Below, one piece after another: positions 13,077 to 29,159 of a stretch of 64,000 nucleotides of DNA; the first letter of the stretch is position 1, and each line of letters starts with the position of its first letter. The position numbers and the translations under genes are program-made. A model generated the notes under the pieces. That model was not told the origin of the DNA and made no database searches. It saw only the letters and a list, made by a program, of their open reading frames with translations. Source of the stretch: an uncultured Poribacteria bacterium. Lineage in GTDB: Bacteria; Poribacteria; WGA-4E; WGA-3G. The DNA is taken from positions 3,552,001 through 3,616,000 of the forward strand of contig CATQHZ020000001.1 of NCBI GenBank assembly GCA_958296135.2. The letters run 5' to 3'.

Positions 13077-14054
13077 CTATTGATAATGAATTTCAGGCAA
13101 TCTATTCCCATCTTCGTATATGTTCACACGTGTGCTACCGAAAACCCGAACGCCTTGCCTATCCAAGTCAACCACAGTGCCGGGGGCATAGTGCCGGTCT
13201 ACCACGGTGCGTTCGCCGTGTTCATCACTGACAACGATTCGGATATGTCGCGACAGATTCCCCTCCTCGCTCACTAGGTGCTTCAGGGGGAGCAATCGCC
13301 CGATGTCTTTCGTTTCCCTTCGCGCGCCGCTGACTTCAAGTTGAACGGTGCTGCCGCCTTGGATGAGTTCACCTGCGGCAGGTTTATGCGTAATAATGCG
13401 CCCCTTCGGAATCTTCGGGTGCGGACTATACTGGATTTCAACCTTGAGCCCTACCTCTTCTAGTTTCGGTCCCACCTCTCTCACAGGCTGTGTGCGGAGA
13501 TCTGGCAGTTGGATGCTTTGCGGCATTGCGCCGAGACTCACCAAGAGGTTCACATCGCTCCCCCGCTGTTGTCCACCCCCTTCAGGTGGCGATTGCGCGA
13601 TGACGGTATTCGGCAGATACTTCGCCGAATGGACGTAGGCGAACCGGTTGGGCCGAAACCCTGCGGCGGTGAGTGTCGCGCGCGCCTCATCCAGCTGTTT
13701 TCCGATAACAGAGATAACCGGTGCCAACTCCGCACCGATGCTCACGGCAATTTCAACCGGCTGATACGACTTGATCCGGAAATTCGCCGGCGGATTTTGG
13801 GAGACGATTTCGCCTTTGGGCGTGGTGCTACTCGCTTCCAGAATAGTCTCAGCGGGACGCAACCCGGCTTCATCAAGCACGCGCACCGCTTCATAATAGG
13901 GCTTCCCGGTGACGTTCGGGACAACGACTTCCTCCGTCCGGACCCACCGTGGCATCACCACAAGAATCGTCAGCACGCCGACAATGCCGAGCACAATCAA
14001 GCAATAAAGCAACACTTTGAATATCGCAAATAAGGGATTGTTGATGCCTTTCAT
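13077..14054 (-). CDS. Membrane-anchored protein with three PASTA domains
   Basis: TM, then VPNVTG..IVSQNP, VIAQSP and LPDL..IITHKP repeats; no kinase domain. Confidence 0.85.
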   Translation of the reverse strand: MKGINNPLFAIFKVLLYCLIVLGIVGVLTILVVMPRWVRTEEVVVPNVTGKPYYEAVRVLDEAGLRPAETILEASSTTPKGEIVSQNPPANFRIKSYQPVEIAVSIGAELAPVISVIGKQLDEARATLTAAGFRPNRFAYVHSAKYLPNTVIAQSPPEGGGQQRGSDVNLLVSLGAMPQSIQLPDLRTQPVREVGPKLEEVGLKVEIQYSPHPKIPKGRIITHKPAAGELIQGGSTVQLEVSGARRETKDIGRLLPLKHLVSEEGNLSRHIRIVVSDEHGERTVVDRHYAPGTVVDLDRQGVRVFGSTRVNIYEDGNRLPEIHYQ

Positions 14055-15258: not shown

Positions 15259-16431
15259 CTACCGTGTGGTTTGCAGCGAGTATCTCGCTGGAGGAACCCT
15301 CAAAGCACGTGACATTTCCGCTATGAAAATACCGCGTGCGCCGTTCAAATCCCTGTCACACCGATGACCGTCTGCATCAGTAATCACCTTCGCACCGCCG
15401 AGGTTCTCGACAATGTTACCTGTCCAGCTAATCGTCTTTGACGTATATGCTTCATTGGCATCAACTACAAGAACACCGTATTCCTTCGCCTTTTGCTTCA
15501 GGAACATTTTGAACTGGTAATGCGATAACGTGAGCATTTGTCGGACAGACTTTTTACGGAGCTTCCTCGCACCACGCTTTGTCATCTGCTTTGTTTCAAA
15601 CGTCGGCAGCAGGATAACGTCGTAAGTATTGACAAGGAAGTGTGCAACTTTCTTGTGTAGTTCCTTCACAAGATTACGGATTTTTAACTGAATCTTCTGT
15701 GCGCATTTTCGCAAGGTGCGCCGTAGCGGACGCTTTACTTGTGTTGCGCGGGCGTAGAGATTATCTGCATGTTGGCAGAGCCTCTGGATACGATTAATTG
15801 CATGATGTCCGAGCCAGCCGAACGCCGTTTCAGAAAACATTGTCATGAACGTCCGAACGCCAGGGTCGAGTGCTACGATATGTCCGCTTGAGTCTCGCGG
15901 TTTTGTTTTCTCGATGTAGCTGACGTTCATATAAAACCTGTCATGTTGCATGACGATGCGACTCTCCTTTACCTCAGATTCATGGTCACGTTCCGCCTTC
16001 TTGCCAGGACCTTGCGGCTTCGCGGGGAGCGGTTCTGTCATCTTCATTTCACCGAGTAAGCGGACATAAAAACCATGAGTTTTGATGAACTGCGCACACA
16101 GGTAAAACGACTTTGTGGTGTTCTTCTTCCTGCGGAACTTTACGCGTTGCGGTTCACCTGTTTCCTTCCACTTTCGCCGTGCTGCAGTCACCGCTTTCTG
16201 TGCATCCATCACTGCACCGACACGGATATGTCGAGGACAATTCGATGTCCACTCAGGCAGTGTTTTTAGCAAGTCGGGCGCATACACCTTGCGTCCTTTG
16301 TTAAACTGCTTCACCGCCTCGTTGTAGACGTAACGTGAGATACCTTCCCACCTACGGAGTCTCGCTTTCTGTGCCGTTGTGGGTAAGATTTCGATCTGCT
16401 TTGATTTCGTCACGGTAGCGTCGGAGTCCAT
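15259..16431 (-). CDS. tnpB: IS607 TnpB RNA-guided nuclease
   Basis: ALDPGVRTF, VILLPTFE, NEAYTSKT, DRDLNGARGI; start placed at ATG 16431 overlapping the end of tnpA. Confidence 0.9.
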   Translation of the reverse strand: MDSDATVTKSKQIEILPTTAQKARLRRWEGISRYVYNEAVKQFNKGRKVYAPDLLKTLPEWTSNCPRHIRVGAVMDAQKAVTAARRKWKETGEPQRVKFRRKKNTTKSFYLCAQFIKTHGFYVRLLGEMKMTEPLPAKPQGPGKKAERDHESEVKESRIVMQHDRFYMNVSYIEKTKPRDSSGHIVALDPGVRTFMTMFSETAFGWLGHHAINRIQRLCQHADNLYARATQVKRPLRRTLRKCAQKIQLKIRNLVKELHKKVAHFLVNTYDVILLPTFETKQMTKRGARKLRKKSVRQMLTLSHYQFKMFLKQKAKEYGVLVVDANEAYTSKTISWTGNIVENLGGAKVITDADGHRCDRDLNGARGIFIAEMSRALRVPPARYSLQTTR

Positions 16432-16957
16432 ACATCCGTGAGGAAAAGACGTGGAGAATCTCCAGCAAATCGGAAGTAAGTTCCTGTTCGGGACTGTGAG
16501 TAGTTTGGTTGAGAACCACGACTTCTCCACCGTTTTGCTCGATAAGATATCGAATGACTTCGCTGCCGAAGCGGGCGAGTCTATCCCGATGGGCGACCAC
16601 AACGCGGCGTTTATCACCGCACAGGACTCTGTCCAATATCCGCTGGAGGCCTTTTCGCTTGAAGTTAATGCCACTGCCGAAGTCTTGGATAACTTCCGCT
16701 TGGGGGAACTTTTCTTGCATGTAGGCGACTTGCGAGGCGAGGGCGTCCGCCTGCGCTTTTCCGCTGACGCGGCAGTAGCAAATGGTAGAAATGTCTGGTT
16801 TTCGTTGAGCATCAACAAACTTCTGGACATCGTAACGCCGATGACCGCCTCCAGTGCGCACGCAGTCGATTTCGCCGCGGGCTTCCATCCTGCGAAGGTG
16901 CTCGATGGAAATATCCAACACCTGCGCAGCGTTTTGTGGTGACATTAGGTGATTCAT
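16352..16957 (-). CDS. tnpA: IS607 TnpA serine recombinase
   Basis: MerR-like HTH with RTGGGHRRY, YCRVSG, DFGSG, HRDRLARFG, FSSRMYGLR; TTGAAA-17-TATAAT ends 6 nt upstream of the ATG (leaderless). Confidence 0.93.
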   Translation of the reverse strand: MNHLMSPQNAAQVLDISIEHLRRMEARGEIDCVRTGGGHRRYDVQKFVDAQRKPDISTICYCRVSGKAQADALASQVAYMQEKFPQAEVIQDFGSGINFKRKGLQRILDRVLCGDKRRVVVAHRDRLARFGSEVIRYLIEQNGGEVVVLNQTTHSPEQELTSDLLEILHVFSSRMYGLRRYRDEIKADRNLTHNGTESETP

Positions 16958-26614: not shown

Positions 26615-27014
26615 TTAATTTACGGCTGTCGCGCTACAGGGATTCACTTGGGATGCAGCCGATGTGCTATACGGCACACAACGACTGTCCACTCCGGTCT
26701 CCAACCGAGCTACCTGTTGGACGAGCAACCAAGTGTTGAAAAATCTTTCATGCATGTGACGAATCCTTATGATAGGTAAGCGAAAAGAAAAGGTGGTCCT
26801 TCCCAATCGATAACGGGGTAGCCCCACGCGCCTCTTGACGTTTCCACTCCAGAGGCGTGACTTCATCTGTCCGCCGTGACTGATTGTGGCTCATCATGAT
26901 GTCCCCATAAAGCATTTTTGTCGCCATCTTAAACTGTTCCCCGAAGTCTCAACATATCGAGATAAGTCGAGACTTCTAAGTTCCTGCTTCATCACTTACC
27001 GCCTCCGAAACGCA

Positions 27015-27483
27015 CCTGCCGATTTTGACGTAGGCATGCTTGCGAAAGCCAAGCATGCCGAAGATGTCTTATTCTGTAAACAGAATAAGACTGCGTCAAA
27101 ATCGGAGAAATGCGAATACTACGAGGTCTTACGCGAGCACCACAGGCGTTTTGCGTCTCGGTCAAACCAGCCGCGACGTTTTCTTTGTAGTTCTAGATAC
27201 TGCAGCGAAACAATCCTTTCTCCGATTTTTGTCGGTCGACGGCGTAGGCGTTCGGGACTACCGAACGCCGAAGATGCGCATTCGGCTTTGCGAATACGCT
27301 GCGCCGTCGACCGCGCGCAGTGTCATTTGCGAACAGGTCACAGACTGACCTATTCGGTTGTTCTAGGCGATCGTGCAGTGTTATTCGGAATACCGAATAA
27401 CACATCTTCGGCGGTTTGTTACTACAAACCGCCTACACGATCGCCAGCAGTTATTACAAACTACCTACGCAAAAATCGGCAGG
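27015..27483. repeat. Nested cluster of Y-shaped GTAG/CGAAGAT elements
   Basis: Units at 27019-27105 (+), 27233-27313 (+) and 27366-27445 (-), plus an envelope at 27217-27483 (-). Confidence 0.85.
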
Positions 27484-27641
27484 GAATCGCGTCGGACTTA
27501 CGGCCCCCTCCACCGTCAGCGATGCAGTCGCACCACCGACTCTTAATACGCTTCACACGGGGGGTTAGGACATTACGCCTGCCTCTTGGTATCGTGCAGC
27601 AGGAAACGTTCTTCACGCTCCGTTCGCCATCCTCTCACCTG

Positions 27642-27729
27642 AGAGATAAAACGACTTAAATCAGATATGTTACGAATGAACGAGACTTACCGAGAATTCA
27701 ATCGATTTACTCGGATTTTCGGGCTCTAG
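27642..27729 (-). mobile_element. Non-autonomous IS607 miniature (about 88 bp)
   Basis: 27703-27734 matches 17011-17042 closely; AGAGATAA at 27642 matches 15231. Confidence 0.6.
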
Positions 27730-27781
27730 CACTCTCCTCCTTCCTAGCGGCACTGCGCGAAAACCTTGCGACTCAATTTAA

Positions 27782-27839: not shown

Positions 27840-29030
27840 TTAACGGCGCGGGAAAAACGTATCAATGCCGGCATCAATATCCTCAATCGGGTGGCCGTAT
27901 TGCTGCCGATAGTTGTCGTGGATACCCTGTTCTGTCTCGGTGAGTGCCGTCAGCGGAAAGGTGAGGGTTTCTCGGCTCCGTTTGCCCGATTCCGCCATCG
28001 CGATGTTCATCTCCTGGTCTTGCCTAGCCAACAGTGCGCCGTATGCCGGCTCTGTGTCGTTAAGCACGGCAGTAGCGATGCTGAGCAATTCATCTGCCAC
28101 CGCAATCTGTCCTTCGGAGAGAGGATAGTGCTTAAGCGGGTTCTCCCACGTCACCGTCTGCTCAGGCAACTCCAACGTAATGTTCTCAATAACGGTGGCT
28201 CCATCCACGTCAATCGTGGTTCGCTTCGGCTGATATGCGATACCTTTCGCCCCAGATTGCAGTTCCTCAGCCGGTGTCACATAGATATCCTCGCCGACGA
28301 TGGTGCCTTTGCTGCCATCAATCTGCGAGATACCCGTTTGCCCGCGTCCCAAGGAACGCGCATGGATGACGTTAGAGTATACCATCAGCGCAGTCGCGCC
28401 GTTATCAAATTCAATGAAGCCGAGGCTCCAATTCTCGCTAGTGTGGTGCCGCTTCATCCTATCAATGATCGGAATCACCGGGCTAGTTTGCACAATCCCG
28501 AGTGCCGACTTCGGTTCGCCGCCGGCGCGAAGCCGCAGCATGCTCATCCCGTGATAGCCGCCTTCGTAAAAAATGCGATAAATCCGAGCGACATCGCCGA
28601 TGACATCCGCCGCGATAACCTCCGACAAGAACCGCTCGCGCGGGGCACGGTAGTAGTTCTCCGCCACTTCAAGTTTGACGTTATTCGCTTTGGCGCGTGC
28701 AATCATCAAATCTGTCGTCGGCAACGTCACAGCAATAGGCGTTTCACAGAGGATGTGAATCCCGGCATCCGCCATAAAGCACCCAACTGCATGATGCGCC
28801 ACACCGGGCACAGTAATATCAACAACATCAAGTACTTCCTGCTCAACGAGTGCACGGACGCTGGTGTAAGGTGTCGCACCGTATTGCTTGGCATAGCGCG
28901 TCGCCACCTCCTCATCTATATCACAAATTGCGACGAGGTTATAGACATCTTTGAGTTTCGCGATAACCGGCAGGTGCGCACCGCCCCCGCGCCGCCCCGC
29001 ACCGACTAAAGCAATATTGAGTTTTGACAT
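27840..29030 (-). CDS. Gfo/Idh/MocA family oxidoreductase
   Basis: ALVGAGRRG, AICDID, CETPIA, VAENY; AGGAGG RBS. Confidence 0.88.
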   Translation of the reverse strand: MSKLNIALVGAGRRGGGAHLPVIAKLKDVYNLVAICDIDEEVATRYAKQYGATPYTSVRALVEQEVLDVVDITVPGVAHHAVGCFMADAGIHILCETPIAVTLPTTDLMIARAKANNVKLEVAENYYRAPRERFLSEVIAADVIGDVARIYRIFYEGGYHGMSMLRLRAGGEPKSALGIVQTSPVIPIIDRMKRHHTSENWSLGFIEFDNGATALMVYSNVIHARSLGRGQTGISQIDGSKGTIVGEDIYVTPAEELQSGAKGIAYQPKRTTIDVDGATVIENITLELPEQTVTWENPLKHYPLSEGQIAVADELLSIATAVLNDTEPAYGALLARQDQEMNIAMAESGKRSRETLTFPLTALTETEQGIHDNYRQQYGHPIEDIDAGIDTFFPRR

Positions 29031-29159
29031 GAAAAACCTCCTAACATGGAAAATGACAGAGCCCTGTCCTTGGCCTGTCCCCACCACGCCCGAGCGAGTC
29101 AAGAACGATTGGGAGAGACAGGCCCTCGCGCTACGATGGCAGCAGCATTTGCTGCTACA

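Follow-up and report, generated by a model that had tools for sequence, protein, structure and literature searches.

An intergenic region in the chromosome of an uncultured Poribacteria bacterium contains three short units (A, B, and C) that share one layout: closing stem, GTAG, hairpin, CGAAGAT, hairpin, CTGC, closing stem. The stem sequences differ between the units. This locus raises the question of whether such Y-shaped units ("Y-units") are a new kind of mobile element built on a three-way junction of single-stranded DNA or RNA, as an earlier reading made from the letters alone (the "sequence-only reading") had proposed, or whether they belong to a class of repeat that has already been described. 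The window (i.e., the whole stretch of 64,000 nucleotides that was analyzed) corresponds to C1:3552001-3616000 of a 5.19-Mb assembly that is 94.7% complete; positions without a contig prefix are those of the window. The Y-units are genuine: they are copies of a small, selfish repeat of DNA, of a kind already known from bacteria.

Y-units of the window and their host repeat

A pattern scan of the window for the GTAG..CGAAGAT..CTGC core gives four matches against 0.05 expected, and none of 100 shuffles reaches four. Sequence and pattern scan together locate units A, B, and C exactly where the sequence-only reading had placed them. The remaining core match (13378-13454, minus strand) is attributed to chance, because it has no hairpins and is missed by a covariance model (R1) built from 22 units of the genome. 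The features of the window that concern Y-units are as follows:

26934..27742, minus strand: host repeat, non-coding, about 460 bp without its inserts, seven copies in the genome
27017..27106, plus strand: unit A, complete mobile unit of 90 bp (type-a frame)
27030-27094, plus strand: core of unit A (pattern scan)
27221..27481, minus strand: envelope, a type-a unit at a second site of the host repeat, limits ..cctttc^...^gggaat..
27231..27315, plus strand: unit B, type-c frame with arms 27233-27243 and 27303-27313, limits ambiguous by 1 nt
27244-27302, plus strand: core of unit B (pattern scan)
27363..27449, minus strand: unit C, type-b frame with arms 27366-27374 and 27437-27445, in the hairpin 1 loop of the envelope
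27375-27436, minus strand: core of unit C (pattern scan)
15259..16830, minus strand: tnpB-like gene of 523 aa (Cas12f1-like_TNB, HTH_OrfB_IS605, OrfB_IS605), not part of the Y-units

The limits of unit A are taken from a unit-free copy of the host repeat (C1:2122193-2122650). Between these limits the unit runs from TG through an 11-nt arm (27019-27029), GTAG (27030-27033), hairpin 1, CGAAGAT (27059-27065), and hairpin 2 to CTGC (27091-27094), a second 11-nt arm (27095-27105), and a final A. The empty site reads ..gcacc^gaaatg.. and the filled site ..gcacc^TG...GA^gaaatg.. (the caret marks a junction or a cut), with no duplication of the target. The R1 scores of units A, B, and C are 89.1, 74.6, and 92.8 bits, respectively.

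Units B and C had been described as lying inside a fourth, A-like envelope (27217-27483, minus strand). When the window is compared with the six other copies of the host repeat, this envelope proves to be an interrupted type-a unit, and the proposed nesting is upheld, with C inserted in the envelope's hairpin 1 loop and B in its 3' closing arm; the envelope's second hairpin is rearranged. The envelope site is empty in two of the seven host-repeat copies (c2122 and c3032, named after their positions on C1 in kb); an intact unit of 88 bp fills it in c1559 and c2279, and the unit that fills it in c945 also contains B. Unit B is thereby present in the window copy and in c945 and absent from c1559, c825, and c2279, and the B-in-envelope combination is found again at C1:3276184-3276349. 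Unit C is absent from an otherwise similar unit in c825, with a junction that is off by 1 nt. In the envelope units at C1:825347-825440 and at about 27316-27362 of the window, a short, unrelated segment that contains a hairpin has taken the place of the spacer and of the 5' half of hairpin 2; the covariance model still gives these two units 60 bits.

All Y-unit copies of the window are intergenic, and their host repeat sits between a small ORF (26615-26866, minus strand) and an oxidoreductase gene (27840-29102, minus strand). Its other copies are found at C1:944751-945476, 1558524-1559162, 3031965-3032448, 2122193-2122650, 824975-825700, and 2278985-2279710. The host repeat has a hairpin near either end and no terminal inverted repeats. 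Window positions 26971-27015 and 27107-27176 are 83-87% identical to DNA just 3' of tnpB ORFs (C1:4548793-4548904 and 3387753-3387869), and positions 27703-27743 are similar to DNA upstream of the window's own tnpB copy. Judged from these similarities, the host repeat is probably a TnpB-less miniature derivative of IS605-family elements, since it resembles the right end of one tnpB family at one of its ends and the left end of a different tnpB family at the other. In several copies, a minus-strand start codon is found 10-25 nt downstream of the host repeat's left end (as oriented in the window).

Across the genome, 34 tnpB (Cas12f1-like_TNB) matches exceed the cut-off, several of them near-identical copies. 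The tnpB gene of the window (15259-16830, minus strand) has upstream sequence extending to about 17042, and the first approximately 140 residues that precede its HTH_OrfB_IS605 domain resemble, by eye, a MerR/excisionase-like helix-turn-helix. These residues have no Pfam match, and this N-terminal part may be the remnant of an IS607-type tnpA fused to tnpB.

Occupied and empty sites

The mobility of Y-units, which the sequence-only reading had suspected from their two orientations and their nesting, is borne out by nine comparisons of occupied with empty sites, eight of which have an exact junction:

Unit A site (site 1): 90-bp insert, exact; absent from one of seven host-repeat copies (C1:2122193-2122650)
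Envelope site (site 2): 88-bp insert, exact; empty in two of seven host-repeat copies
High-copy REP composite: 91-bp insert, exact; C1:3108364 versus 979641
High-copy REP composite, type-b unit: 83-bp insert, exact; C1:1676958 versus 3107012 and 4229966
Type-c unit in the hairpin 1 loop of a type-a unit: 93-bp insert, exact; C1:2785 kb versus 3108 kb
Type-b unit c825096 in the hairpin 1 loop of unit A: 86-bp insert, exact
Left end of tnpB family 1: exact; three copies filled and one empty
Unit B in the envelope: exact by comparison, the limits of B being ambiguous by 1 nt
Unit C in the envelope (the ninth comparison): off by 1 nt

The inserts measure 83-93 bp, and target duplication is absent in all eight exact junctions. 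Two host-repeat copies carry a further type-b unit in the hairpin 1 loop of unit A. Filled and empty copies of tnpB family 2 differ by a larger replacement and yield no clean junction, so this family was set aside as a source of junctions.

Units of types a and c start with TG and end with an A after the frame. An empty site is available for five type-a/c events; on the sense strand, their upstream flank ends in C (..C^) in every case, and the downstream flank is ^GAAA in three, ^AAAA in one, and ^GATA in one. Among 14 independent type-a/c sites (counted by eye), C stands before the unit in nine and G after it in nine. Several of the targets are small hairpin loops, among them hairpin 1's own GCGAAAGC loop, a motif that makes a DNA mini-hairpin of unusual stability. 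The preferred target is C^G, frequently as C^GAAA in a small hairpin loop; the loops of other units and the ends of tnpB elements are also among the places of insertion. The number of independent insertions is perhaps 20, because many copies ride as passengers in duplicated host elements. At three single-copy sites (C1:1892, 10955, and 16693), no joint that skips the unit is seen in the four sequencing runs listed as containing this DNA, none of them an RNA run and all of one sample that is probably the assembly's own. The contigs of these runs break within units at 1950 and 16762.

Fold, covariation, and REP architecture

The fold of units A, B, and C is in each case a three-way junction (z-scores from -7.9 to -11.9). 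The GTAG and CTGC motifs, which belong to the invariant core of the sequence-only reading, are not left unpaired: GUA pairs with UGC (G-C, U.G, and A-U) atop the closing stem, and the last G of GTAG and the G that follows it pair with the CC preceding GAAGAT. The sole unpaired strand of the junction is therefore GAAGAU. The U.G pair is invariant on one strand in all 22 aligned units and becomes a C.A mismatch on the opposite strand, so that the unit has a defined sense strand. The R1 score likewise depends on the strand (102.8 versus 45.3 bits).

The claims that the stems are "fully covarying" and that structure is conserved while stem sequence varies both hold for the family as a whole. In the alignment of 22 units, 97.8% of cells are paired, compared with 74.8 +/- 1.1 in shuffles, and none of 500 shuffles reaches the observed value. 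Both sides change in 21 of the 27 pairs (130 cells versus 34.2 +/- 4.5 in shuffles), and pairing falls to 30-48% when the partner is slid by 1-3 columns. One-sided changes of the G.U type are absent from every variable pair of this alignment, which contains a single G.U cell besides the invariant U.G. In 25 distinct units that were parsed, hairpins 1 and 2 are free of G.T pairs in every unit and the frame is free of them in 23. In hairpin 1, 21 of the 25 have 8-11 perfect pairs and the remaining four an imperfect stem. All changes run from one Watson-Crick pair to another, which suits a DNA palindrome that must pair on both strands better than an RNA; covariation without wobble intermediates points to DNA. 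The RNA part of the earlier designation "ssDNA/RNA element," and self-cleavage with it, has little support, given the missing Rfam match and the missing G.U-type changes.

The closing frames are 9-11 bp long and of three kinds: type a encloses unit A and the envelope, type b encloses unit C, and type c encloses unit B. Hairpin modules come from a limited pool and are recombined among units and frames (e.g., frames b and c share one hairpin 1, and frames a and b share one hairpin 2).

The architecture of the unit becomes apparent when each half is read on its own strand. The loops of hairpin 1 (GCGAAAGC, TTTA, and AATA) are the reverse complements of the loops of hairpin 2 (GCTTTCGC, TAAA, and TATT); therefore, each half on its own strand consists of G(T/C)AG, a stem, and one class of loop. 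GTAGG is invariant in the 22 aligned units, and on the other strand hairpin 2 follows GCAG, which is one of the GYAG variants. From its sequence, the Y-unit joins two REPs of one class head to head; their stems differ, a 7-nt spacer separates them, and a palindromic frame encloses them. The genome as a whole is rich in such tagged hairpins: 1321 perfect hairpins carry a GTAG tag, compared with 47-191 for five control tags, and they fall in a few large families. The bulk REPs of the genome likewise pair head-to-head within short frames (e.g., in the flank of copy c2122).

The text of Di Nocera, De Gregorio, and Rocco (2013; PMC3733652) describes GTAG REPs with complementary stem changes and GYAG tag variants, as well as HH, TT, and HT REP dimers and heterodimers. 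It also describes dimers inside longer palindromes of which no empty form exists (A. variabilis GTAG-15 and H. neapolitanus CGTC-1). Y-units resemble the GTAG REP families of that account in the hairpin directly after GTAG, the GYAG variants, and the compensated stem changes. They resemble its GTAG HH heterodimers in the inverted REPs, the tags on the outside, the differing stems, the palindromic setting, and the presence of RAYT (REP-associated Y1/HUH tyrosine transposase) genes in the genome. Compared with the GTAG REP dimers described there, however, Y-units have fixed asymmetric tags (GTAG/GCAG in 22 of 22), an invariant 7-nt spacer, three alternative frames of 9-11 bp, and about 40 copies. 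Relative to the bulk REPs of the same genome, the stems of Y-units are AT-richer. No Poribacteria family is seen in the consulted text of PMC3733652. The view that these elements are "unlike simple REPs or REPINs" thus gives way: the units are head-to-head pairs of GTAG-type REPs, an architecture found in the text of PMC3733652. Y-units are not a new class, and the family adds to the GTAG-REP dimers.

Two further known systems invite comparison. In a REPIN, two inverted REPs are mutually complementary and make up a single long hairpin. Y-units share with REPINs and BIMEs the use of a REP plus an inverted REP as the unit, as well as the presumed single-strand HUH enzyme that reads GTAG plus a hairpin and cuts at C^T, the dinucleotide at which Y-units end. 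Hairpins 1 and 2 of Y-units, in contrast, have different stems and fold separately, and the frame closes a three-way junction. Tandem BIME arrays of Y-units are not seen. The miniature derivatives of the IS200/IS605 family, known as PATEs, are similar to Y-units in their end hairpins, their lack of classical terminal inverted repeats and of target duplication, their target-specific insertion, and their closeness to tnpB elements. In contrast to these miniatures, Y-units carry a GTAG tag, occur in a genome without a canonical TnpA, and are guests inside tnpB elements. A REP dimer can thus pose as a three-way-junction RNA; the signs that identify it are the GTAG tag, the reverse-complementary loop classes, and covariation without G.U intermediates.

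Distribution of the family and its candidate transposase

On the chromosome, 30 units match a strict regular expression. The covariance-model search proposed in the sequence-only reading uncovers further copies: R1 gives 61 matches in the genome, comprising 39 strong places of at least 59 bits, 3 weaker places, and 19 echoes on the opposite strand. The 39 strong places are fewer than in typical REP families. Beyond this genome, one of 60 relatives has R1 matches, at one place in a same-genus draft (G001; 210 contigs, titled Candidatus Poribacteria). The other same-genus genome (G002; 2 contigs) has no R1 match, nor has any of 150 further genomes sampled from the phylum, in which the top candidates were scored under strict filters. 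Scans with the exact-core pattern, which diverged relatives escape, return 62 loci from 185,579 species genomes, one of which is real by R1 (in a MAG, Candidatus Poribacteria AGPOR5, 93.8 bits; the other loci score at most 22 bits). In score and alignment this locus is identical to the G001 match, so the two are apparently one and the same. Among metagenome contigs, the exact-core scan returns 88 stretches, and none of the 80 scored by R1 exceeds 25 bits. All copies found thus belong to one genus, a distribution to be expected of a selfish repeat that expanded recently. Rfam was named in the sequence-only reading as the place where a described family might turn up; it gives no match at gathering score over the whole window and none at E up to 10 over 26800-27700.

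A search of the genome for longer, autonomous elements with the ends of the units gave nothing convincing, and it is noisy because the type-a frame sequence also occurs in TPR-coding DNA. One candidate pair of ends (C1:236596 and 237259, 660 nt apart) was rejected as chance. The type-a frame sequence lies in TPR-repeat coding DNA at C1:1610950-1611650 and C1:2554500-2556250 (motif A-I-A-D-F-D), which is probably a coincidence.

The HUH transposase that the sequence-only reading suggested looking for is represented by two intact, RAYT-like Y1_Tnp genes, at C1:3734 kb and 4791 kb, which match PF01797 at 44.8 and 29.8 bits, both over the cut-off. One of them matches the TnpA-REP of E. coli (4er8_A; E 8.8e-7), and the other (RAYT2) has no match among solved structures. 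By eye, from the translations and the 4er8 alignment, both genes keep the HUH motif and the tyrosine of Y-x-x-x-N-P, and in our reading of the alignment this tyrosine falls on the 4er8 motif that holds the catalytic tyrosine. The two loci (C1:3732978-3736307 and C1:4789655-4792897) are REPtron-like, with RAYT-like genes lying within arrays of GTAGG-tagged REPs. The REP arrays cause program-made ORFs at these loci to run through repeat-encoded peptide repeats. R1 has no match near either Y1_Tnp gene, the flanking REPs being other GTAGG REPs. As no Y-unit flanks a RAYT gene, no REPtron ties a RAYT to the Y-unit subfamily.

Of the five type-a/c events with an empty site, all five have C^T as the left junction of the sense strand, and four of five have it on the other strand as well. 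The text of Corneloup et al. (2021; PMC8266576) reports that TnpA-REP cuts single-stranded REP DNA at C^T, 5' or 3' of the REP, and that GTAG helps to choose the site. From the C^T ends of the units and this C^T cleavage, we infer mobilization by a RAYT. The Y-unit is a non-autonomous, REP-class mobile DNA element, which a RAYT encoded elsewhere in the genome would move, a reading that we regard as reasonably probable. In single-stranded DNA, the frame repeat and GTA/TGC close a three-way junction. The RAYT would recognize G(T/C)AG plus the hairpin in this single-stranded form, and the C^T cut directed by each tagged hairpin would fall about 13 nt upstream of it on the same strand, at the 5' boundary of the unit. 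One-strand cut-and-paste of the IS608 type does not fit, because the right end on any single strand is A^G; the version of the RAYT model that we infer is one with cutting on two strands. Several observations weigh against the RAYT step: no RAYT gene has Y-units at its flanks, the target is C^G and not C^T, two type-b events (1676958 and c825096) do not end at C^T, and GTAG is paired with CTGC in the fold, unlike the unpaired tetranucleotide used in the solved RAYT complex (text of PMC3479197). Also on this side, about 40 copies are few for a REP family, and many of them are passengers, which leaves perhaps 20 independent insertions.

Movement by a different enzyme is the foremost alternative to mobilization by a RAYT. 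The units could be miniature IS200/IS605-type (PATE/MITE-like) elements whose hairpins are left and right ends, and a canonical TnpA (IS200) would then move both these units and the 34 tnpB elements. Precise insertion without target duplication is as this account predicts, and the antisense 5' flanks (TTTC in three events, TATC in one, and TTTT in one) are similar to targets of the IS608 type, whose mechanism is summarized in the text of PMC8266576. Moreover, a tnpB ORF begins 25-760 nt downstream of 12 of 40 units, each of which is antisense to the ORF, with more units in the TnpB-less derivative, and two Poribacteria relatives carry canonical IS200 TnpA at 100-133 bits (36 matches in G005 and 3 in G004). 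In this 94.7% complete genome, however, no canonical IS200-type TnpA is found, the Y1 matches being the two RAYT-like ones (45 and 30 bits), and the GTAGG tag and C^T ends suit a REP and its RAYT better. The closeness to tnpB is a hint rather than a statistic, because the 12 units trace to about five insertions in elements that were multiplied later; one copy of tnpB family 1 lacks the unit, which is therefore a guest in tnpB elements and not an end structure. Movement by a canonical TnpA is accordingly considered rather unlikely.

If the repeats were gene copies of a functional structured RNA (a ribozyme, a terminator or stabilizer, or an antisense partner of the tnpB leader), the very stable folds (z -7.9 to -11.9), the U.G pair invariant on one strand (22 of 22), the strand-dependent model score (102.8 versus 45.3 bits), and the single orientation of the tnpB-proximal units (12 of 12) would be understandable. 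Yet neither the gathering score nor a limit of E up to 10 yields an Rfam match, no variable pair shows one-sided changes of the G.U type, both orientations occur in one intergenic region, nesting in loops destroys the fold of the host unit, and the family is known from one genus; a functional RNA is thus very improbable. It is barely credible that the units are immobile, static parts of larger repeats and that the apparent insertions are deletions. Many copies are indeed carried within duplicated host elements, and no skipping joints are seen at three single-copy sites in one sample, but identical ends occur in unrelated hosts (a MITE, a tnpB left end, a REP composite, unit loops, and unique intergenic DNA), and precise deletion at identical ends would itself imply excision.

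For the preferred reading, mobilization by a RAYT, a further step can be imagined, although we consider it distinctly unlikely. The units may be natural footprints of REP-dimer transposition, with the entire framed dimer as what transposes, cut at C^T about 13 nt 5' of the tag on each strand (GTAG on one, GCAG on the other) and pasted into C^G of GAAA-type loops, with the RAYT as an active transposase and maybe also as the trans-acting enzyme for the 34 TnpA-less tnpB elements. RAYTs are usually regarded as domesticated. Whichever enzyme moves them, the useful feature of this family is its unusually clear insertion footprints, including self-nesting and entry into IS605-family elements. Their source is a sponge symbiont that is uncultivated and whose genome is very rich in REPs. 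The spread of REPs and REP dimers is described as poorly understood in the text of PMC8266576, and clean pairs of occupied and empty sites, with exact ends and a target preference, offer raw material on how REP dimers spread.

Two minor observations concern the assembly as a whole. Contig C2 (143,886 bases) has a GC content of 36.8%, compared with 54.4% for the chromosome, and lacks both the core and the frame words of Y-units; this contig may be foreign or may represent an extrachromosomal element. The cumulative GC skew of the genome is irregular.
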